DNA from: Chloroflexota bacterium
Lineage (GTDB): Bacteria > Chloroflexota > Limnocylindria > Limnocylindrales > CSP1-4
Direction: 5' to 3'
Assembly: GCA_039931975.1 (NCBI GenBank)
Contig: JBDTQW010000003.1
Location: 1-61,271 of the forward strand
Length of the DNA: 61,271 nt
The notes beneath the pieces were generated by a model. It was not told the origin of the DNA. It did no database searches and saw only the letters and a program-made list of their open reading frames with translations. Position numbers and translations under genes: made by a program. Below, in pieces: positions 1 through 7,860 of this stretch. Each line of letters starts with the position of its first letter. Positions within the stretch are counted from its first letter, which is position 1.

Positions 1-697
1 TGTAGAGCGGAAGGGCGAACAGGAGCGTGGCCCACAGTCCGGCGCCGCCAGGCAGCCGCTCGTAGATCTGTGCCATCAACCAAGCGAGTGGCGCTAGCGC
101 AAAGAGGTTTGCCCAGTATCCGCGTGCATCTCCGAGGAGGACGAGTCGGAAGTCCAACCCATGCAGGAGGCTTACGCTGGCCGCCGTGATGACCACATTG
201 AGAAAAAAGCAGATACCGGCCATGACGATCGTCGCGGCGAAGCTAACCGCCGGTTCACTGGATACCCTGAGGATCGCCTCATAGGCGAAAGCACCGAGGA
301 TCGCCGGGAGGACGATGCCGGCGTGATTGAACAGGGAGCCATACCAAGGCACTCGTCCGCGAAGCTCGCGGACCTCAGTAGTCCCGAGCGCGGCCACCCA
401 CCCGGCCGCAGCCGGACCTCCCAGGATTGCCGCGGCAACAATCGGAGCCAGCGCGACGGATACAAGGGTCCCGCGCGGCATCCTAACCGGAAACGCCGAC
501 GCGAAGAGTGTGATCAGGACCCAAAATCCCACGCCCAAAAGTGCAAAGAGCGGGGTTGCTTGCTCGCTGACCGCGATCGACCGGCGCATCCCGAGGACGT
601 AGTCCGGTGCCCCAACAAAGACAAGACTCGTGACAACGAGTGCGATTGCACTCGCTCCCACGAGCCCTGCAATGTAGAACCTAAGTGCCTTCGGCAT
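1..697 (-). CDS. Multi-pass membrane sensor protein, N-terminal part only (runs off the window edge); resembles the MASE-type input domains that precede HD-GYP/GGDEF domains
   Basis: Not in the ORF track. ATG at 697 preceded by GGGACGAGGA, open for 232 codons to the edge. Translation MPKALRFYIAGLVGASAIALVVTSLVF...FWVLITLFASAFPVRMPRGTLVSVALAPIVAAAILGGPAAAGWVAALG...WYGSLFNHAG...WATLLFALPLY has many hydrophobic segments. Any catalytic domain lies outside the window. Confidence 0.8.
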   Translation of the reverse strand, partial: MPKALRFYIAGLVGASAIALVVTSLVFVGAPDYVLGMRRSIAVSEQATPLFALLGVGFWVLITLFASAFPVRMPRGTLVSVALAPIVAAAILGGPAAAGWVAALGTTEVRELRGRVPWYGSLFNHAGIVLPAILGAFAYEAILRVSSEPAVSFAATIVMAGICFFLNVVITAASVSLLHGLDFRLVLLGDARGYWANLFALAPLAWLMAQIYERLPGGAGLWATLLFALPLY

Positions 698-769
698 TCC
701 TCGTCCCTGAGATCCCGACCTCCCGGAACTCTAATCCCTCTGGTCAGGACTGGTTATGAGACTAAGGTC

Positions 770-859
770 CTAAAAGCCCCTTAGTGACGCAGCGCCAGCA
801 AGCGCGGCGGCGAGCACCGCGCCCAAGGCGACTACTGTTCGAAGGAAGCGGTCCTTCAT
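770..859 (-). CDS. 29-aa signal-peptide-like small protein MKDRFLRTVVALGAVLAAALAGAASLRGF
   Basis: Manual translation from ATG 859 to TAG 770. Basic n-region, 15-residue hydrophobic core, AxA motifs and a short polar tail. Below the ORF-track cutoff; its own SD is weak (AGTGGA). Confidence 0.65.
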   Translation of the reverse strand: MKDRFLRTVVALGAVLAAALAGAASLRGF

Positions 860-882
860 GGTTCCACTGGCTCTGTTTCTGG

Positions 883-915
883 TTACCAGGTCTTGGTAAA
901 CGTTTCGGTCGCCAC
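883..915 (-). CDS. 10-aa micro-ORF (V/M)ATETFTKTW
   Basis: GAGGAGGT (928-921) lies 5 nt before GTG 915; TAA at 885-883; ends 23 nt upstream of the 29-aa peptide ATG. Confidence 0.4.
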   Translation of the reverse strand: MATETFTKTW

Positions 916-952
916 GGTGTACCTCCTCGCGGCCCTCATGCCCTTAGAGACA

Positions 953-985
953 CGAAAACCGACCTGACTGGTAAGTCGGTCGGTT
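953..985 (-). terminator. Terminator-like hairpin (riboswitch expression platform)
   Basis: Minus-strand RNA AACCGACC-GACU-UACC-AGUC-A-GGUCGGUU followed by UUCG: 8 bp plus 4 bp with one bulge and a short U tract. The 5' arm is shared with the aptamer 3' end. Confidence 0.6.
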
Positions 986-1048
986 GCACTACTCGCTCCG
1001 CACCCACCCTAAGTGCCCATTTCAGGTGGGGCTTCCGCGCGTCCGAAC
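975..1048 (-). promoter_or_regulatory. c-di-GMP-II riboswitch aptamer
   Basis: Minus-strand RNA GUUCGG-A-CGC-GCGGAAG-CCCCACCU-GAAA-UGGGCACUU-AGGGUGGGU-GCGGA-GCG-A-GUAGUGCAACCGA-CCGAC. Carries the class II hallmarks UGGGCACUU and AGUAGUGCAACC, the GCACU/AGUGC pseudoknot, P1 UCGG/CCGA, P2 CGC/GCG, P3 CCCACCU/GGGUGGG, and kink-turn-like GAAG/GGA strands. Confidence 0.85.
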
Positions 1049-1093
1049 ATCTTGACATTGCTTCCCAGTACTTCCGTACTGAGTCGTGGCGGG

Positions 1094-1123
1094 ACTATAG
1101 GTAGCCCGAACTTCGCCGGTCAA
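1094..1123 (-). promoter_or_regulatory. sigma70-type promoter TTGACC-N18-TATAGT for the riboswitch/peptide transcript
   Basis: ggtcaa at 1118-1123 and actata at 1094-1099 on the + strand; overlaps the regulator stop codon. A CAGUAC-GGAA-GUACUG hairpin (1081-1066) would sit near the transcript 5' end. Confidence 0.6.
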
Positions 1124-4100
1124 TACGGCACCTTACCTATCGTCACAAGGCTCTCGAGTGACGGCGGCTCAATTCCTAGATCGTTTCGGAACGCGGCAGC
1201 GTAATGCCCGTAAAGCTCCGCGGCAGCCGATTGGGCGTCAGTTCGGACGTAGAGCCGAACGAGTGACAGCTGCATCTGCTCGGCCTTGGGGTCGGCCTCA
1301 AGGGCTCTCCTAGCCAGCCTGATCGCCCGATCGACTGCACCCGTGTTGGTATCAGCCGAAACAGCCCGTTCGATGATTTCCAAGTAGCTCGCGTGCATCG
1401 AGTCACGAAACTGCCCAGCCCAGTCCTCATATTCGAAGTCAAGGGCAAACCGACCCCGGTACGTCTCGCTCAGGCGTTCGACATTCTCGGGTGATGGATC
1501 TGCCTCGGCTTGGCGGATGGCCGCTCGCGACCGAGCAGATCGGCTGTCCACGAGCTCGGGATCCAGCCATAGCACATCAGAGTCATGGTGCAGGTAGTGA
1601 GGGGACGTATCGGCCGAGTAGGACGGCTCGAAGACACGGCGAAGGTGGTAGGCGGTTTGGTTCAGCGAGTTGACCGCGATCTTTGGAGCCTGCTCAGGCC
1701 ACAAGGCATCGAGCACCTGGTCCCGTGTCGCCGACAGGTTCGGGCGTGACAGAAGGAAACAAAAGAGCGCCAGCGCCATTCGACGCACTCCCGTGCTACC
1801 CAAGATATCCCTATCCCCGACTTGAATGGCCACGCGGCCCTGGTCCTCGACGACGATACGAGCAGCGAGCCGCCGGGCCAGTCCGCGACCTAGGCCAGCA
1901 GCCCCGTGCGATCTCCGGTGTTCCTTTGCGATGAGACGCAATGGGAGGACATCCTGGTGTTCACCGACCCGATCGAGGATTACGGCCGCCTCGAGTCTCA
2001 AACGTCGATCATCCCGATGGATGGCTTGCCTCAGTCCCTCTCTCCAGCGGTCCGGCATCCGAGCAGCCTCAGACGCTACCGATGCGAGGACTGCTGGATC
2101 GAGGAGCGGGAGCCGGTCGGTAACCAGCTCAGCGATCAGCGACAGGCTGGCTGGCCTATCGGCGACGACATGGCGCACGGCCTCGTTGAAGGCCGGCTGG
2201 TCATGAGTCGCCGCCTGGAGCACTCGGGCGCTGCAGGCGTAGAGACGTGCGCCTTGTCGTACTGCCAGGTTTAGAGCGTCGGACACGTCCTTGTCGGCTC
2301 CAGCTGACTTCGCCGCGACGGCGAGCCAGGCCCTGGTCAAGAGAAAACGGCTCATGAATGCCGCGACGGCGTGCGGACGATCGGTGGCGATGGCGTCGAG
2401 GCTCATCCGGGCCCCGTCGAGGTCGCCCCGACGCAACGCGAACATGGCAGACACCAGGTGCTGAAGATCGACGGTGGAGTCTGAGTTAAAGGGAGCTTCA
2501 GACGCCCGTAGCAGCGATCCTTCGCCCAGGAAGCGGTCGCCGAAGGCAGCATAGGCCTCCGCGATGAATGCCAGGGTCTCGCCCCTGACTGCGTCAAAGT
2601 CCTTCGATTCCGCTCGCTGAAACTCCTCGCGCGCCTCTTGCCATTCGCCTTGCTGCGCGAGGGCCCAACCCCGAAGAGCCATGGCAGCCTCAACCTCGAT
2701 CCCGGAAGATGTGGCCGATAGCTCTTGGATTGCTCTGGTCGATGCGGACAGTGCGCTCGCCGTATCGCCTCGGGCGCAGTCGATATCCGCGACATTGAGC
2801 CACGTGATTCCAACGTAGTGTCGGAGGCCGCTCGCCTCCTGTTCAGCCGCCATCTCTAGGAGCATGGTCCGTACTTCATCGAGGTTCGCAGTCGTCGAGC
2901 CGTCGAGGATTGCCACCACGGCTCTCGCGATTGCACGGACGATGCTCGAGGTCGTGCGAGTGGCCAACAGTTCTGCCACCTCGTGCTCAGTCTCCAGATC
3001 ACCACCGACATGCAGGACCGTGATCAGGTTGAGTAAAGCGTGGTCGGCGATGGTCGCCTGGTTCCAACTCATCGCTTTCTCGACAGCGAGCTCAGCGTGC
3101 TTGCGAGCGCTATCAGTGCGGCCACGGTAGAGGTCCATTCGCGAAACGAAGAGCTCGAAGGCTGCGTTGTTCTGGGCGCCGACCCGCAGAACGTAGGACT
3201 CGGCCAGGGCGAATTCGCCGGTACCCATGATGGTCGGTACTGCAGCCTGAACCACAGTGGCGAGATCAGCCATGTCGTCTGCGGCCGCGAAGTGGTAGGC
3301 CGCCAGGCGCCAGTCCGATGCGCCAGCGTGGCGAGCCACGGCTCGATGGAGATCTCTGGCAACGGCATCCCCGAGTGTGCGTCGCAGCCGCGATTCCAGG
3401 AACTCGCGCACGAGCGGGTGATACCGCCGGACCCCTCGGCGACTGGTTCCCCGCGTCGACAGGAGGCCGTATCGCTCCGTGGCAGCGATCAACTCTCTCG
3501 CACGAGTGGCCGGGAATCCACCGACGACCTCGGCCAGGGCCGGATCGACGGTCTGTAGCAGCGATGTAGTCATGAGGAAGCGTTGGGTCTCGTCGTCGAG
3601 ATCGCCGACCACCTCCTCGGCGAGGTAGTCGTACAACTCGCCTTGCGCCCCGCTCAAGCCCCGGACGAAGGTCCGGATCTCGCCGGGCGATCGGTCTCGC
3701 AGCGCTGCGTTGACCATCTCCAGGGAGGCTGCCCAGCCTTCCGTCCGATCGGCCAGGTCCGACAGCACATCCGGTTCCAGAGTCCGCTTATACGTCTCTC
3801 GGAATAGCCGCTCGGTCTCATCGAGGTCGAAACGGAGATCCGCGGCGTCGAGTTCCGCAACCTCACCGAGGGTCCGCAAGCGAGCCAATGGGACCGTGGG
3901 TGAAAGGCGAGACACGAACACGAGGGTGAGGCGCTCAGGAGCGCGGCTGATCAGCTGTTTGATCAGGACCCTGATATCGGGGACGTCGTCGACGAGGTGG
4001 TAGTCGTCGATAATCAGCGTGGCTCCCTTCGGGCCGAGGCTCTGGAGCTCCCTCATGAAGGTGGCGATGACCGTGTCGCGCGACGGGCCTGTCCCGACCC

Positions 4101-4626
4101 CGAGCTCGGTCAGCAGGCCCTTCGTCGCGGGCGCGAAGTCCGGCTTGATCTCCCGTCCGGCGGCAACCAGGTAGTGAAGAAAGCTCACCCAGTTGCGGTC
4201 GTCCTCGTCGAGCCGGTACCACATCGTCGGCCGTCGGTGATGGCGCGCGAAGTCGGCCAGCAGCGTCGTCTTGCCGTATCCAGCCTCGGCGGTGACGAGC
4301 ACGATCCGATGGTGGATCTTGACCTTCAGCCACGCGATCAGGCGTTCGCGACGCAGCGTTTCGCGCCGCAACGGCGGTCGCTGGACCTTCGCCGGTTGGA
4401 GCGGGAACTCGTGCAAGACGTCGCCGCCGATCGGGAGCGCAAGGCTGGGGCTGGATGCCGGTCGTCCCGGTCCGACAGGAACCGGTTCCCGCGCTCCCAG
4501 CTCGATGCGGGTCCCCGTGGACGGCCCCAACGATAAGGACCGGTTCTCCCTGGTGTCAACGCCGCGGTCGGCCAGGGGCGTTCTGTTGGGTTGGGCCATG
4601 TCGCCATAGTGGCGAGCGACGCTCAT
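1120..4626 (-). CDS. Large transcriptional regulator: MalT-like STAND ATPase, TPR-like helical region, C-terminal SARP module (OmpR-type wHTH + BTAD)
   Basis: Walker A AEAGYGKTTLL, Walker B LIIDDYH, MalT-like TEGWAASL and LYDYLAEEV motifs; C-terminal ATRDQVLDALWPE...LRRVF and YRGRFALDFEYEDW. Exact start uncertain. Confidence 0.85.
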   Translation of the reverse strand: MSVARHYGDMAQPNRTPLADRGVDTRENRSLSLGPSTGTRIELGAREPVPVGPGRPASSPSLALPIGGDVLHEFPLQPAKVQRPPLRRETLRRERLIAWLKVKIHHRIVLVTAEAGYGKTTLLADFARHHRRPTMWYRLDEDDRNWVSFLHYLVAAGREIKPDFAPATKGLLTELGVGTGPSRDTVIATFMRELQSLGPKGATLIIDDYHLVDDVPDIRVLIKQLISRAPERLTLVFVSRLSPTVPLARLRTLGEVAELDAADLRFDLDETERLFRETYKRTLEPDVLSDLADRTEGWAASLEMVNAALRDRSPGEIRTFVRGLSGAQGELYDYLAEEVVGDLDDETQRFLMTTSLLQTVDPALAEVVGGFPATRARELIAATERYGLLSTRGTSRRGVRRYHPLVREFLESRLRRTLGDAVARDLHRAVARHAGASDWRLAAYHFAAADDMADLATVVQAAVPTIMGTGEFALAESYVLRVGAQNNAAFELFVSRMDLYRGRTDSARKHAELAVEKAMSWNQATIADHALLNLITVLHVGGDLETEHEVAELLATRTTSSIVRAIARAVVAILDGSTTANLDEVRTMLLEMAAEQEASGLRHYVGITWLNVADIDCARGDTASALSASTRAIQELSATSSGIEVEAAMALRGWALAQQGEWQEAREEFQRAESKDFDAVRGETLAFIAEAYAAFGDRFLGEGSLLRASEAPFNSDSTVDLQHLVSAMFALRRGDLDGARMSLDAIATDRPHAVAAFMSRFLLTRAWLAVAAKSAGADKDVSDALNLAVRQGARLYACSARVLQAATHDQPAFNEAVRHVVADRPASLSLIAELVTDRLPLLDPAVLASVASEAARMPDRWREGLRQAIHRDDRRLRLEAAVILDRVGEHQDVLPLRLIAKEHRRSHGAAGLGRGLARRLAARIVVEDQGRVAIQVGDRDILGSTGVRRMALALFCFLLSRPNLSATRDQVLDALWPEQAPKIAVNSLNQTAYHLRRVFEPSYSADTSPHYLHHDSDVLWLDPELVDSRSARSRAAIRQAEADPSPENVERLSETYRGRFALDFEYEDWAGQFRDSMHASYLEIIERAVSADTNTGAVDRAIRLARRALEADPKAEQMQLSLVRLYVRTDAQSAAAELYGHYAAAFRNDLGIEPPSLESLVTIGKVPY

Positions 4627-4668: not shown

Positions 4669-4872
4669 TCAGCCCTCGTATTCGAAGCCGATCTTGAGCT
4701 CGACCCGATACTCGACGATCTCATTGTCGTCGACGATGGCGCTCGACTTCACGACCTCGACGGTCCTGATATTGCGGACGGTCTTCGACGCCATGGCGAC
4801 GGCCACTCGTGCCGCGTCGGACCACGAGTTCGGGCTGGTCCCGACCATCTCCCGGATGATGATGACGCCCAT
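4669..4872 (-). CDS. Dodecin family flavin-binding protein
   Basis: 67 aa; VGTSPNSWSDAA...KTVRNI...EYRVELKIGF matches the dodecin pattern. Confidence 0.85.
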   Translation of the reverse strand: MGVIIIREMVGTSPNSWSDAARVAVAMASKTVRNIRTVEVVKSSAIVDDNEIVEYRVELKIGFEYEG

Positions 4873-5001: not shown

Positions 5002-5304
5002 TCAGGCGGAGACGGCTCCTGCGGCAGCCGCGCGGACTTTGTCGAAGCAGGAGCTGCAATAGACCGGACGATCGTTGCGGGGGGCGAACGGGACGATCGC
5101 CTGGCCTCCGCATTCCCCACAGATCGCGGCGTGGAACTCGCGCGGGCTATCGCTCGAGCGAGCCCTCTTGGCGGCCGCCCGGCAGGACGGGCAGCGTTGC
5201 GGGTCGTTCTGAAGACCCTTGCTGGCAAAGAAGGTCTGCTCGCCGGAGGAGAACAGGAACTCGTCGGAGCAGTTGCGGCAGGTCAGTGTTCGATCTTGGT
5301 ACAC
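5002..5304 (-). CDS. Small zinc-ribbon protein (zf-trcl-like plus CxxC-x17-CxxC domain)
   Basis: MYQDRTLTCRNC...GEQTFF...PQRCPSCR...CGECG...PFAPRNDRPVYCSSCF. Confidence 0.9.
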   Translation of the reverse strand: MYQDRTLTCRNCSDEFLFSSGEQTFFASKGLQNDPQRCPSCRAAAKRARSSDSPREFHAAICGECGGQAIVPFAPRNDRPVYCSSCFDKVRAAAAGAVSA

Positions 5305-5560
5305 CCTGGTCCCTCGTCCGCATCAGGGATGACGGTGTCGATCGAACGGACTGGCTGGATTCGGGCGCGGCCGCTGGGGACGGTGACGCGGGCTCGACTC
5401 CGACCGTAGTGCCCGGACGGTCGCAATTCTGTCCGGCAGGATACGCGCCGAGTCAAGGGCTGGGGAATACAGCCATGTCCTGATTAGACCGGCTCCGTTG
5501 CGCATTGGCACCACGAGCGACCGTTGGGAACCCGATGGCCTGCGCTATCGTCCGGGCGAC

Positions 5561-6439
5561 ATGCCGAACGCCCGCCCTGCCACTTTTGCCTTGTCCACAG
5601 TCGTCCTGGCCGCGGCATGTGCGACCGGTGCGGCCTCACCGTCACCCATCCCGCCCACCCCGGCCCCGACCCTGGCGATCGAGCACGCCAAGGGCGCGAC
5701 CGACGTCGTCCTGCGCATGTCGACCGGGGGCGGCTTCGTCCCTGCTGGGTTTCTCCTGACCGAGGCACCCGAGTTCACCCTGTACGGCGACGGGACCGTC
5801 GTCTTCCGGAACCCGGCCAACGGTCCGGCGGCTCCTGTCCCCGACGATGGCGTGATCCGCAACGCGCCGTTCAGGACGGCGCGTCTGACCGAGGCCCAGG
5901 TCCAGGAGCTCCTCGAGTTCGCGATCGGCCCGAGCGGCCTGGGGATCGCCCGCGCCCAATACGACCCGTGCTGCGTCGCCGATGCGCCATCGACCACCTT
6001 CAACTTTCGGGCGGGCGGTCCGAACAAGGAGGTCACCGTCGGGGCCCTCGACTTCGACGATCCGCAACCGGGGCCGGACTCACTCGTGCGCAAGGCCTTC
6101 AAGGGACTCGCGGAGCGACTGCGCAACCTCGATCGGACTGGCGTCTCGTCGCCGGTCTTTGTGCCCGCGGCCTATCGGGGCGTCCTGTTCGAGGGCGGCG
6201 GTGGCCTCGCGGTACCGATCCGCGACTGGCCGTGGACGACCTTCGGTCCCGATGGATTCACTGCACCGGCCGACCCAAATGGCAATCAGACCCCGACCCG
6301 GACCTTGACCGCCGACGAGGTGGCTGCGTTGAAGATCAGCGGCCTCGAGGGCGGGGCTCAATCCATCGCGCTGCGGACCTCGAACGGAAAGATCCTCCTG
6401 CTCGGGCTCCGTCCGCTGCTGCCCGGCGAGAAGAGTTAG
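5561..6439 (+). CDS. Hypothetical lipoprotein
   Basis: ATG 5561; signal peptide ending LAAAC followed by a Pro/Thr linker; high GC at third codon positions. Confidence 0.7.
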   Translation: MPNARPATFALSTVVLAAACATGAASPSPIPPTPAPTLAIEHAKGATDVVLRMSTGGGFVPAGFLLTEAPEFTLYGDGTVVFRNPANGPAAPVPDDGVIRNAPFRTARLTEAQVQELLEFAIGPSGLGIARAQYDPCCVADAPSTTFNFRAGGPNKEVTVGALDFDDPQPGPDSLVRKAFKGLAERLRNLDRTGVSSPVFVPAAYRGVLFEGGGGLAVPIRDWPWTTFGPDGFTAPADPNGNQTPTRTLTADEVAALKISGLEGGAQSIALRTSNGKILLLGLRPLLPGEKS

Positions 6440-7788
6440 CCGGGCACGTCCGCGTAGCGCTCGCCGGCATAGGACACGAACCGGGTCTGGCGCTTCTTGA
6501 ACCAGAGCTGGACCTCACCGGTCGGCCCGTTGCGGTGCTTGGCGAGCTTGAGATTGATGACCTCGCCCTCCTGCTCTTGATCGTCCGTTCCGCGCTCCTT
6601 ATCCCGCCACAGGAACATCACCAGGTCGGCGTCCTGCTCGATCGCGCCCGACTCGCGGAGGTCCGAGAGTCGTGGCTCCTTGCTCTCGCGCATCTCCGGT
6701 TGGCGTGACAGCTGGGAGAGCGCGATGACCGGCACGGAGAGCTCGCGGGCGAGCGCCTTGAGCCCACGCGAGATCTCCGACACCTCCTGGACCCGGTTTG
6801 CGTCGCGGTTGGTCGTCGTCGCCTGCATCAGCTGGAGGTAATCGACGACGATGAGATCGAGTCCGGCCTCGGCCTGGAGCCGGCGAGCCTTGGTCCGAAG
6901 CTCCATCGCGGTGATGTTCGGTGTGTCGTCGATATAGACCGGTGCCTCCGAGAGCGCGTTCATCGCCGGGGCGAGCCGGGCGAAGTCCATCTCCTCGAGA
7001 AAGCCCGTGCGCAGCCGCTGCGAGTCGATGTTGGCGACGCTCGAAAGAAGACGCAGGACGAGCTGCTCCTTGCTCATCTCGAGGCTGAACACACCGACGC
7101 TCTTGCCCTCGGTCACCGCGGCGTATTCGGCGATATTGAGCGCGAAGCTCGTCTTGCCCACGCTTGGGCGGGCGGCCAGGACCACGAGGTCGCTCTTCTG
7201 GAGGCCGGTCGTCAGAGCGTCGAGATCGGCGAACCCGGTCCGGACTCCGCTGATCTCCCCTCGGTGAGCGTGGAGATAGTCGAGCCGGTCGTAGGCGTCG
7301 TGGAGAAGGGTCTTGAGCGGGCTGAAGCCGGTCGAGATTCGCCGCTGACTGACGTTGAAGAGCTCGCTCTCGGCGCGGTCGATCGCCTCCTGGATCTCTG
7401 CCGGATCCTCGTACCCGATGCCGGCGATCTTGCCCGCTGCGGAGATCAGGTTCCTGAGCACCGCCTTGCGCTCGACGATCCGGGCGTACTGAACGGCGTG
7501 AACCGCGGTCGGGGTCTGGTTGGACAGGCTCGAAAGGTATGACCGCCCACCGACCGTCTCGAGCTGGTCGCCCCGCTCGAGCGCCTCGGCCACGGTCACG
7601 ATGTCGACCGGCTCGCGCTTGTCGAACAGCTCGAGCATCGCGGCGTAGATCGAGCCGTTGGCTGGGCGGTAGAAGTCCTCCGGCCGCAGAAACTCCGCGA
7701 TCTCGACGACGGCGTCGCGGTCGATCAGGATCGAGCCGAGGACCGATTGCTCGGCCTCGGTGCTCTGGGGTGGCAGACGATCGATCAA
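6436..7788 (-). CDS. dnaB: Replicative DNA helicase
   Basis: LPPQSTEAEQSVLG N-terminus, AARPSVGKT Walker A, SLEMS, VVDYLQLM, LSQLSR, LSDLRESGAIEQDAD. Start set at TTG 7788 (ORF track extends to 7860). Confidence 0.97.
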   Translation of the reverse strand: MIDRLPPQSTEAEQSVLGSILIDRDAVVEIAEFLRPEDFYRPANGSIYAAMLELFDKREPVDIVTVAEALERGDQLETVGGRSYLSSLSNQTPTAVHAVQYARIVERKAVLRNLISAAGKIAGIGYEDPAEIQEAIDRAESELFNVSQRRISTGFSPLKTLLHDAYDRLDYLHAHRGEISGVRTGFADLDALTTGLQKSDLVVLAARPSVGKTSFALNIAEYAAVTEGKSVGVFSLEMSKEQLVLRLLSSVANIDSQRLRTGFLEEMDFARLAPAMNALSEAPVYIDDTPNITAMELRTKARRLQAEAGLDLIVVDYLQLMQATTTNRDANRVQEVSEISRGLKALARELSVPVIALSQLSRQPEMRESKEPRLSDLRESGAIEQDADLVMFLWRDKERGTDDQEQEGEVINLKLAKHRNGPTGEVQLWFKKRQTRFVSYAGERYADVPG

Positions 7789-7860
7789 GGCACACCGAAT
7801 CTGGCGGAGGGGAGTGACAGGTCGAGTGTCATCGACGGGATGGGTGGGCCGGTCAACCAA

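Follow-up and report, generated by a model that had tools for sequence, protein, structure and literature searches.

A c-di-GMP-II aptamer, two conserved micro-ORFs and a MASE9-HD-GYP gene share one locus in Limnocylindria (Chloroflexota)

Introduction

Riboswitches of the cyclic di-GMP type II (c-di-GMP-II) family include a transcriptional ON switch upstream of pilA1 in Clostridioides difficile. Small membrane proteins are known to modulate sensors and transporters, as in MgrB-PhoQ, SafA-PhoQ, AcrZ-AcrB and KdpF, and Gram-positive RRNPP peptide signalling operates through pairs such as Phr/Rap, PapR/PlcR and SHP/Rgg. Here we analyse a locus that recalls each of these systems. It lies at the start of a 61,271-nucleotide (nt) stretch of DNA, referred to as the window, from a Chloroflexota metagenome-assembled genome (MAG; assembly GCA_039931975.1, contig JBDTQW010000003.1). 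A c-di-GMP-II aptamer is followed there by a 10-codon upstream open reading frame (uORF), a gene for a 29-amino-acid (aa) peptide and the gene of a MASE9-HD-GYP membrane protein, and is preceded by the gene of a large STAND regulator.

With the C. difficile riboswitches the locus shares the aptamer family (RF01786) and a terminator that competes with the 3′ strand of the aptamer. It differs in its high-GC Chloroflexota host, in a conserved 5′ hairpin before the aptamer, in the genes controlled, which begin with conserved micro-ORFs and continue with MASE9-HD-GYP and DUF5317-MFS, and in the STAND/SARP-type regulator fixed upstream. The peptide resembles MgrB, SafA, AcrZ and KdpF in its size of about 30 aa, its single predicted hydrophobic segment, the position of its gene beside a presumed target and its conserved sequence. 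It is not homologous to them, however, and neither its conserved, extracytoplasmic-looking GGAS-x-K/R-G-F/W tail nor the soluble 10-mer that echoes this tail has a counterpart there. As in RRNPP systems, the gene beside a TPR-containing regulator encodes a short precursor whose N-terminus is signal-like and whose C-terminal tail is short; unlike in those systems, the regulator is a 1168-aa MalT-type STAND protein with a winged helix-turn-helix (wHTH) and BTAD output, the tail is conserved at family scale, and one family has the peptide without the regulator. The regulator itself is similar to MalT/LAL proteins and to large SARPs of the AfsR type in its P-loop NTPase, MalT-like arm and TPRs, and it carries a wHTH and a BTAD domain as SARPs do. 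Its order, NTPase-TPR-...-wHTH-BTAD, places the SARP module at the C-terminus, whereas that of AfsR is N-terminal and MalT ends in a LuxR helix-turn-helix.

The membrane protein has the two hallmarks of MASE9-HD-GYP proteins, an integral-membrane N-terminal domain matching PF20972 and an HD-GYP domain with intact motifs; described examples are T. maritima TM1467 and S. venezuelae HdgA (bioRxiv 10.1101/2021.11.05.467447). MASE9 has been proposed to bind a ligand within the membrane (Galperin and Chou, bioRxiv 10.1101/2021.11.05.467447), and that paper mentions neither a riboswitch (0 occurrences) nor a companion micropeptide nor a DUF5317 partner. The protein studied here stands apart in its weak MASE9 match (18-36 bits across the orthologs) and in its riboswitch, micropeptide and DUF5317 companions. 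PMC12564702, which cites Lee et al. 2010, connects the c-di-GMP-II motif with genes for c-di-GMP turnover. Riboswitch control of such genes is established, and self-limiting c-di-GMP feedback is a familiar design. In the searchable literature MASE9 occurs in one relevant paper, which does not mention riboswitches, DUF5317 in no paper, and Limnocylindria together with c-di-GMP in none; a conserved layer of twin micropeptides behind a c-di-GMP riboswitch appears to be undescribed there.

A constant arrangement in two families

The window belongs to contig C3 of the MAG (145 contigs, 2.65 Mb, 70% GC, 77% complete), hereafter G000. Its position 1 is base 1 of that contig and hence a contig end, and all parts of the module lie on the minus strand. 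We assembled 38 oriented loci from 13 genera, with the window's own family designated f1, and scanned a sample of 401 Chloroflexota genomes for aptamers and peptides. Promoter, leader and terminator were aligned across 13 loci.

The same order recurs throughout f1 and a second family, f3, both of class Limnocylindria: regulator, promoter, 5′ hairpin, RF01786 aptamer, overlapping terminator, uORF, peptide, MASE9-HD-GYP and DUF5317-MFS. An earlier note on this DNA had listed five tandem minus-strand parts, namely the regulator, a promoter, an aptamer with an overlapping terminator, two micro-ORFs and a membrane ORF, and each of these is present as described. Its account left out the fourth cistron, DUF5317-MFS, as well as the 5′ hairpin and the commonness of c-di-GMP-II aptamers in Chloroflexota. 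The note had also proposed to test whether aptamer and peptide ORF co-occur in related genomes, and both are kept in homologous loci. A downstream protein devoid of signalling domains, with homologous loci lacking both elements, was what it had named as fatal to its reading; since the homologous loci hold aptamer and peptide and the downstream protein carries an HD-GYP domain, that objection falls away.

Genus g11 holds all parts of the module in diverged form. In a further family, f4, the order is peptide, terminator-like hairpin, MASE9-HD-GYP (about 40% identity) and DUF5317-MFS; there the aptamer (sought at E<=0.1) and the uORF are missing, and the whole genome gave no regulator ortholog at E<=1e-20. 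Every part of the module is absent from family f2, whose genomes are about 1.1 Mb. The peptide, HD-GYP and DUF5317-MFS thus form the evolutionary core, since f4 retains these three genes and has neither riboswitch nor uORF nor regulator. By the same comparison, riboswitch, uORF, regulator and aromatic tail were either jointly present in the ancestor of f1 and f3 or jointly lost in f4. In f4 loci L104 and L105 a strong terminator-like hairpin stands between the peptide gene and HD-GYP (for example GGGAGCC-GGA-GGCUCCC-UUUUCGUAUUU); it may act by attenuation, or the peptide may be expressed separately.

Promoter, leader hairpin and riboswitch

A sigma-70-type promoter, TTGACC-N18-TATAGT, is located at 1094..1123 on the minus strand and agrees with the consensus at 10 of 12 positions. 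It is the sole such site within positions 1-1400, where shuffled sequences lead one to expect 0.2. Both hexamers are invariant in the 13 aligned loci, and the f3 counterpart reads TTGACy-N17-TAnAGT. Between the -10 hexamer and the aptamer, both families carry a 5′ leader hairpin (1064..1083, minus strand; CUCAGUAC-GGAA-GUACUGGG, 8 bp plus tetraloop) of the form NNNRGUAC-tetraloop-GUACYNNN, with loops that are often of the GNRA or UNCG type. The hairpin is supported by covariation: 95.3% of cells are paired and 11 cells are changed on both sides, which 0 of 500 shuffles attain, and slid controls are 14-46% paired. At one pair, 12 of 24 sequences have G-U. These G-U pairs and the compensatory changes speak for an RNA hairpin, and led us to reject a reading of the AGTAC-N4-GTACT element as a palindromic DNA operator. 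The hairpin may contribute to mRNA stability or be part of the riboswitch fold.

The c-di-GMP-II aptamer (RF01786; 969..1053, minus strand) matches the Rfam covariance model over its full length (1-84) with 59.9 bits, against a gathering score of 53.5 (E 1e-11), and is single-copy in the G000 genome. It occupies the same position in 17 of 18 related loci, and orthologous loci score 57.9-72 bits. The conserved core and the pseudoknot partners UGGGCACUU ... AGUGCAACC are present in the cmscan alignment and invariant in the 13 loci, while the outer P1 is short and has mismatches flagged in that alignment. Aptamers of this family are widespread in the phylum, with a match in 100 of the 401 sampled genomes (51 above the cut-off); the other c-di-GMP-II aptamers in Chloroflexota precede different genes.

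Directly overlapping the aptamer is an intrinsic-terminator-like hairpin (948..985, minus strand; 5′ arm 984-975, loop 974-969, 3′ arm 968-958) followed by the U-tract UUUUCGUGUCU, which extends to 948. Its 5′ arm, AACCGACCGAC, is the 3′ end of the aptamer, comprising the P1 3′ strand and the adjacent junction. The hairpin forms in both minimum-free-energy and centroid folds, its stem bases are invariant in the 13 loci, and f3 loci hold an equivalent. We infer from this overlap that the expression platform has ON-switch geometry.

Several observations on the aptamer region stand beside this. The g11 aptamers (L106, L108, L110) score 29.7-37.3 bits, well under the RF01786 threshold, and one of them fits the c-di-GMP-II-GAG variant better (RF03169, 34 bits vs a gathering score of 40). 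No clear terminator follows the aptamer at these three loci, and their weak aptamers may reflect a changed ligand specificity or a translational platform. In f3 (L072-L091), an invariant 22-nt block, RGAAGAGGGCACCUUCUGAUG, lies about 40-62 nt past the aptamer and forms a hairpin that ends in the uORF start codon; its loop, AGGGCAC, repeats the aptamer pseudoknot strand GGGCAC. The f1 loci retain GGCAC about 12 nt before the Shine-Dalgarno (SD) sequence of the uORF. The aptamer GUGC may have an alternative partner in either segment.

Two conserved micro-ORFs

The uORF (883..915, minus strand) starts with GTG and encodes (M)ATETFTKTW in 10 codons. Its SD sequence, GAGGAGG at 928-922, is placed 7 nt upstream of the start and is much stronger than that of the peptide ORF. 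Of the 38 loci 33 have the uORF, which is invariably preceded by a good SD and closes with [K/R]-x-[W/F]-stop; the remaining loci belong to frameshift-ridden few-contig assemblies, apart from L025, whose version has only 6 codons. Variability is highest at the third codon position (0.36 vs 0.29 and 0.18), and in g11 the product reads M-x-P-E...R-x-W-stop. As a side observation, L024 (genome G012) carries an in-frame tandem duplication of the uORF, MNPKSALKGWSLNPESALKGW, with the motif kept, and the uORF of L108 (genome G275) has repeated GSPRPTTDR-like units around a run of N. Both cases suggest a region prone to repeat expansion in which the K/R-x-W end is retained.

The 29-aa peptide (770..859, minus strand; MKDRFLRTVVALGAVLAAALAGAASLRGF before the stop codon) consists of a basic N-terminus, a hydrophobic core, an A-x-A motif and a GGAS-x-[K/R]-G-[F/W] tail. 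The ORF is coding: mean pairwise differences by codon position are 0.28, 0.25 and 0.56, and the sequence is kept across families with abundant synonymous change, at lengths of 29-36 aa. We built a profile from 24 peptides of the two families and used it in a six-frame search of the 401 genomes. Matches at E<=1e-4 were confined to f1 (15 of 24 genomes) and f3 (13 of 16), one per genome, and in all 28 of these genomes the peptide lay 90-200 nt 3′ of the aptamer. Neither Pfam nor NCBIfam has a family for it.

The best conserved segment among the 24 sequences is the C-terminal GGAS-x-K/R-G-F/W. It is preceded by a near-invariant A-[LIV]-[AG] and, further upstream, by the hydrophobic core of 11-17 residues. 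The g11 peptide ends in GGGASYRPF-stop, and that of f4, MRR[IM]...LVLGGGAG[VI]SGI-stop, lacks the [K/R]-x-[F/W] tail. In several lineages the tails of uORF and peptide are identical, as in TLKGF/TLKGF (genus g13) and SLKGW/SLKGW (L089). Since matching residues are often written with different codons (CTT/CTC, GGC/GGT, AAG/AAA), the likeness is kept at the amino-acid level, and gene conversion or identity at the RNA level was rejected as its source. Independent W/F switches are few, about three, so that the co-variation of the two tails is suggestive only. A type I toxin-like role of the peptide was considered and set aside: the peptide is encoded by an internal cistron of a conserved operon, its polar tail is conserved, and no antisense partner was seen.

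The cistrons are separated by short, conserved spacings. Between peptide and HD-GYP lies a structured spacer (698..769, minus strand). Three boxes in it are conserved: GGACCUUAGUC, which follows immediately on the stop codon of the peptide, GGGAUUAGAGUUCC in the middle, and the HD-GYP ribosome-binding region CAGGGACGAGGA. In single-sequence folds of f1 the post-stop box pairs with the HD-GYP ribosome-binding region, and in the consensus fold of the window's own genus it pairs with the middle box in an 11-bp helix. A consensus fold of this spacer over mixed genera gives no structure. In 8 of 10 f3 loci a hairpin next to the SD of the peptide, GGGCUGG/CCAGCCC or a version of it with G-U pairs, takes in the last uORF codons and the stop; the f3 consensus fold of the post-terminator region returns the invariant hairpin at the uORF start alone, with no covariation. 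A chain of translational coupling from uORF to peptide to HD-GYP would fit these contacts, and we put it forward as an inference because the consensus folds give no compensatory support.

The MASE9-HD-GYP and DUF5317-MFS proteins

Positions 2..697 (minus strand) encode the N-terminal 232 aa of the MASE9-HD-GYP protein, corresponding to its MASE9 membrane domain, and the gene is cut by the contig end. Its C-terminal half is at the end of contig C145 of the same genome, whose reverse strand starts GGLLHDVGK...HHEWYNGSGYPDRL. The HD, HHE and GYP motifs are intact in this fragment (LLHDVGK...RHHHEWYNGSGYP / GGLLHDVGK...RHHHEWYNGSGYPDRL), which is 97% identical to the ortholog in genome G002. Same-genus orthologs of 463-482 aa join MASE9 to HD_5/HD. 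The HD_5 matches of orthologs have E 1e-33 to 1e-40, and domain and motifs together identify the protein as an HD-GYP member. For MASE9 (PF20972) the window fragment scores 20.7 vs a gathering score of 24.3; orthologs range from 18.0 to 35.7, and three exceed the cut-off (L016 24.6, L024 35.7, L072 29.0).

The nearest solved structures are the HD-GYP phosphodiesterases 5z7c, 4mcw and 4r8z. Because the best match in the Protein Data Bank, 5z7c, is specific for 3′3′-cGAMP, it is the riboswitch context by itself that points to c-di-GMP as the probable substrate, rather than cGAMP or another nucleotide. The G000 genome encodes at least 16 GGDEF and at least 7 HD-GYP domains, and c-di-GMP signalling is therefore active in it.

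The next gene on C145 after HD-GYP encodes a fusion of a DUF5317 domain with an MFS_3 transporter. A second DUF5317 gene of G000 (190 aa, stand-alone) is located 12 nt after the gene of a membrane GAF-GGDEF-EAL protein of 881 aa (C11:20466-23696, minus strand), which means that each of the two DUF5317 copies of the genome comes after a membrane-bound c-di-GMP enzyme. The control genomes of Thermotoga maritima and Thermus thermophilus contain the domain too.

Proposed mechanism and alternatives

We regard as probable, with due reserve, that the locus is a c-di-GMP ON switch with negative feedback, in which a leader is translated and a small peptide, membrane-bound or exported, acts on the sensor or the transporter. 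The constitutive-looking sigma-70 promoter would drive a leader composed of 5′ hairpin, aptamer and terminator. As ligand binding should sequester the strand shared with the terminator, bound c-di-GMP would hold the terminator 5′ arm within the aptamer, block termination and let transcription continue; the switch should then be ON with c-di-GMP. The read-through mRNA would comprise four cistrons, uORF, peptide, MASE9-HD-GYP and DUF5317-MFS. With its very strong SD the uORF most likely loads ribosomes and helps to open the next start site. The 29-aa peptide, inserted in the membrane or exported, would be a small partner of the membrane proteins of the operon, of which MASE9-HD-GYP is predicted to hydrolyse c-di-GMP and DUF5317-MFS to be a transporter-like protein. 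In net effect, high c-di-GMP would induce its own hydrolase, a homeostatic negative feedback that agrees with the reported link of the c-di-GMP-II motif to turnover genes (PMC12564702), with hydrolase activity set by the MASE9 membrane sensor and probably also by the peptide. The earlier note had anticipated part of this. Its ON logic agrees with the overlap of terminator and aptamer, its proposed membrane c-di-GMP enzyme proved to be a MASE9-HD-GYP protein with all three motifs, and the HD-GYP domain that it expected beyond position 1 was found on C145.

MASE9 is not known to have a ligand or partner. If the proposal is right, the peptide may supply the missing input of this membrane-embedded phosphodiesterase sensor. 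The locus would be a natural case of stacked control, in which riboswitch, translated leader, micropeptide and sensor enzyme succeed one another, in an abundant uncultured lineage of soil and freshwater. Among possible partners of the peptide, a membrane protein of the operon (MASE9 or DUF5317-MFS) is more likely than the regulator, because f4 keeps peptide, HD-GYP and DUF5317-MFS without it. Tail and 10-mer may still relate to the regulator.

Some findings weigh against our proposal. The U-tract UUUUCGUGUCU is interrupted, and for this reason the hairpin fails a simple terminator scan; the terminator stem barely varies, so that covariation lends it little support. The HD-GYP gene is interrupted here by an assembly gap of about 65 residues, and the spacer helix of the window's own genus shows no compensatory changes. 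With its hydrophobic stretch of about 17 residues followed by A-x-A, the peptide could equally be a membrane anchor or a signal peptide that is cleaved and releases an octapeptide. Finally, the uORF motif and the synonymous tail match exceed what pure ribosome loading needs.

The cleavable form leads to a different account, a peptide-signalling loop, in which the precursor would be nearly all signal peptide and cleavage after A-L-A would release GGASLRGF or a shorter tail, to be sensed by MASE9 or, once re-imported, by the TPR arm of the regulator in an autocrine or quorum-type control of c-di-GMP. Such a loop would agree with the basic n-region, hydrophobic core and near-invariant A-[LIV]-[AG], with the peptide gene lying between TPR regulator and membrane sensor in f1 and f3, and with an MFS_3 exporter-like protein in the operon. 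Relative to G002 the sensor-side segments diverge faster (regulator central arm 63-70% identity, MASE9 72-84%) than the catalytic half with DUF5317 (83-93%). GC content also dips, to 0.58-0.61 over 600-1600 vs 0.70 genome-wide (0.58-0.66 across the module, 1-4600, with the minimum of 0.58 at 600-1000), and the [K/R]-x-[F/W] tail is confined to lineages with the regulator (f1, f3), being missing from f4. This co-occurrence of tail and regulator rests, however, on essentially one evolutionary split, and the regulator is a 1168-aa MalT-type STAND protein rather than a receptor of the RRNPP type. Diversifying pheromones vary in their mature region, but here the C-terminal tail is the most conserved part in the 24 sequences of two families, and no pherotype-like diversification was found at family scale. 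The earlier note had cast the TPR regulator as one of two possible readers of the peptide, beside the membrane sensor; f4, which keeps the peptide with no regulator ortholog, speaks against it as an obligatory reader, and the obligatory pairing of peptide and TPR receptor that marks RRNPP/Phr systems does not hold in this family. We judge the loop unlikely on balance. Were the peptides signals after all, second-messenger and peptide signalling would be directly linked. A more elaborate version, which we hold to be a long shot, would make the soluble uORF 10-mer and the 29-mer tail carriers of one [K/R]-x-[F/W]-COOH epitope, the ligand of the regulator's TPR arm, of MASE9 or of both, so that a riboswitch-gated peptide signal would feed back on transcription and c-di-GMP hydrolysis. 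The locus would then be a second-messenger-to-peptide relay with the same signal in an intracellular and an extracellular copy.

At the other extreme, the micro-ORFs might matter by translation alone, through ribosome loading, unfolding of start sites and protection from Rho or RNases, with functionless products. The contrast of a very strong uORF SD and a weak peptide SD, the stop codons in or beside hairpins that touch the next ribosome-binding site, and the short conserved spacings between cistrons all accord with a pure cis-regulatory leader. Peptide residues and length are nevertheless conserved across families despite abundant synonymous change, the matching tails use different codons, and the peptide persists in f4 under a different leader architecture, which makes this explanation improbable. 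The uORF product could instead be an arrest peptide whose [K/R]-x-[W/F]-stop stalls ribosomes on a small-molecule cue, giving the riboswitch a second input. Its C-terminal motif is invariant before the stop in 33 loci of two families and g11 (there R-x-W), and it survived the tandem duplication in L024; yet the same motif ends the 29-aa peptide, which does not stand in a leader position to a terminator, the W/F exchange is tolerated, and no known arrest motif matches. We consider arrest very improbable, and continue to favour the ON switch with negative feedback.

The STAND regulator and the upstream genes

The regulator gene (1120..4626, minus strand) encodes a 1168-aa MalT-type STAND NTPase with a TPR arm, a C-terminal wHTH (Trans_reg_C) and a BTAD domain, as assigned by Pfam (AAA_22/AAA_16, TPR, Trans_reg_C, BTAD) and NCBIfam. 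AAA_22 scores 30.7 (cut-off 27), TPR_2 is above its cut-off, and the Walker A motif reads AEAGYGKTT. Residues 76-634 resemble MalT (NF003420, E 2e-65), under the equivalog cut-off. The protein has the P-loop NTPase, helical arm and repeat sensor domain of MalT-like STAND NTPases, and the OmpR-type wHTH followed by BTAD that defines SARPs: Trans_reg_C scores 26.8 (cut-off 26.2) at residues 952-1002 and BTAD 46.8 (cut-off 22.1) at 1026-1154. The f3 regulators have this output as well. By its domain order the protein is a STAND regulator with a SARP-type output placed C-terminally, and orthologs of about 1100-1190 aa with the same architecture stand 5′ of the aptamer in f1 and f3. Synteny with G002 breaks off abruptly at about 4120-4200, within the 5′ end of the regulator gene.

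A regulatory link between this protein and the operon promoter is plausible. The stop codon of the regulator falls inside the -35 hexamer, and about 10 nt upstream of that hexamer lies a conserved GATAGGTA box (1134..1141, minus strand), a candidate operator or UP-like element identified by alignment. The box is invariant in the window's own genus and is retained in other f1 genera in which the regulator stops further upstream and the box falls outside its coding sequence. In f3 the place of the box is taken by a second TTGAC repeat, which precedes the -35 hexamer by 21-32 nt; box and repeat are candidate binding sites for the wHTH-BTAD regulator. It could also be that the regulator is merely a syntenic, co-directional neighbour whose stop overlaps the promoter by chance. 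A near-consensus promoter may need no activator, and f4 runs the core genes without the regulator; against this, regulator and operon have stayed adjacent in f1, g11 and f3 although the sequences have diverged to 31-58% identity, and the GATAGGTA box is conserved even where it is non-coding. Chance neighbourhood seems to us possible, if rather doubtful; it concerns the regulator only and is compatible with the ON-switch explanation of the operon.

Further upstream, a 313-aa ORF without a Pfam match occupies 5498-6439 on the plus strand. On the minus strand the regulator is preceded by genes for a dodecin (4669-4872, E 5e-23) and for a double treble-clef zinc-finger protein (5002-5304, zf_Tbcl + zf_Tbcl_2). 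A DnaB-like ORF of 474 aa, assigned by sequence only, lies at 6436-7860 (minus strand), and a similar N-terminal ORF is present upstream of the regulator in L020.

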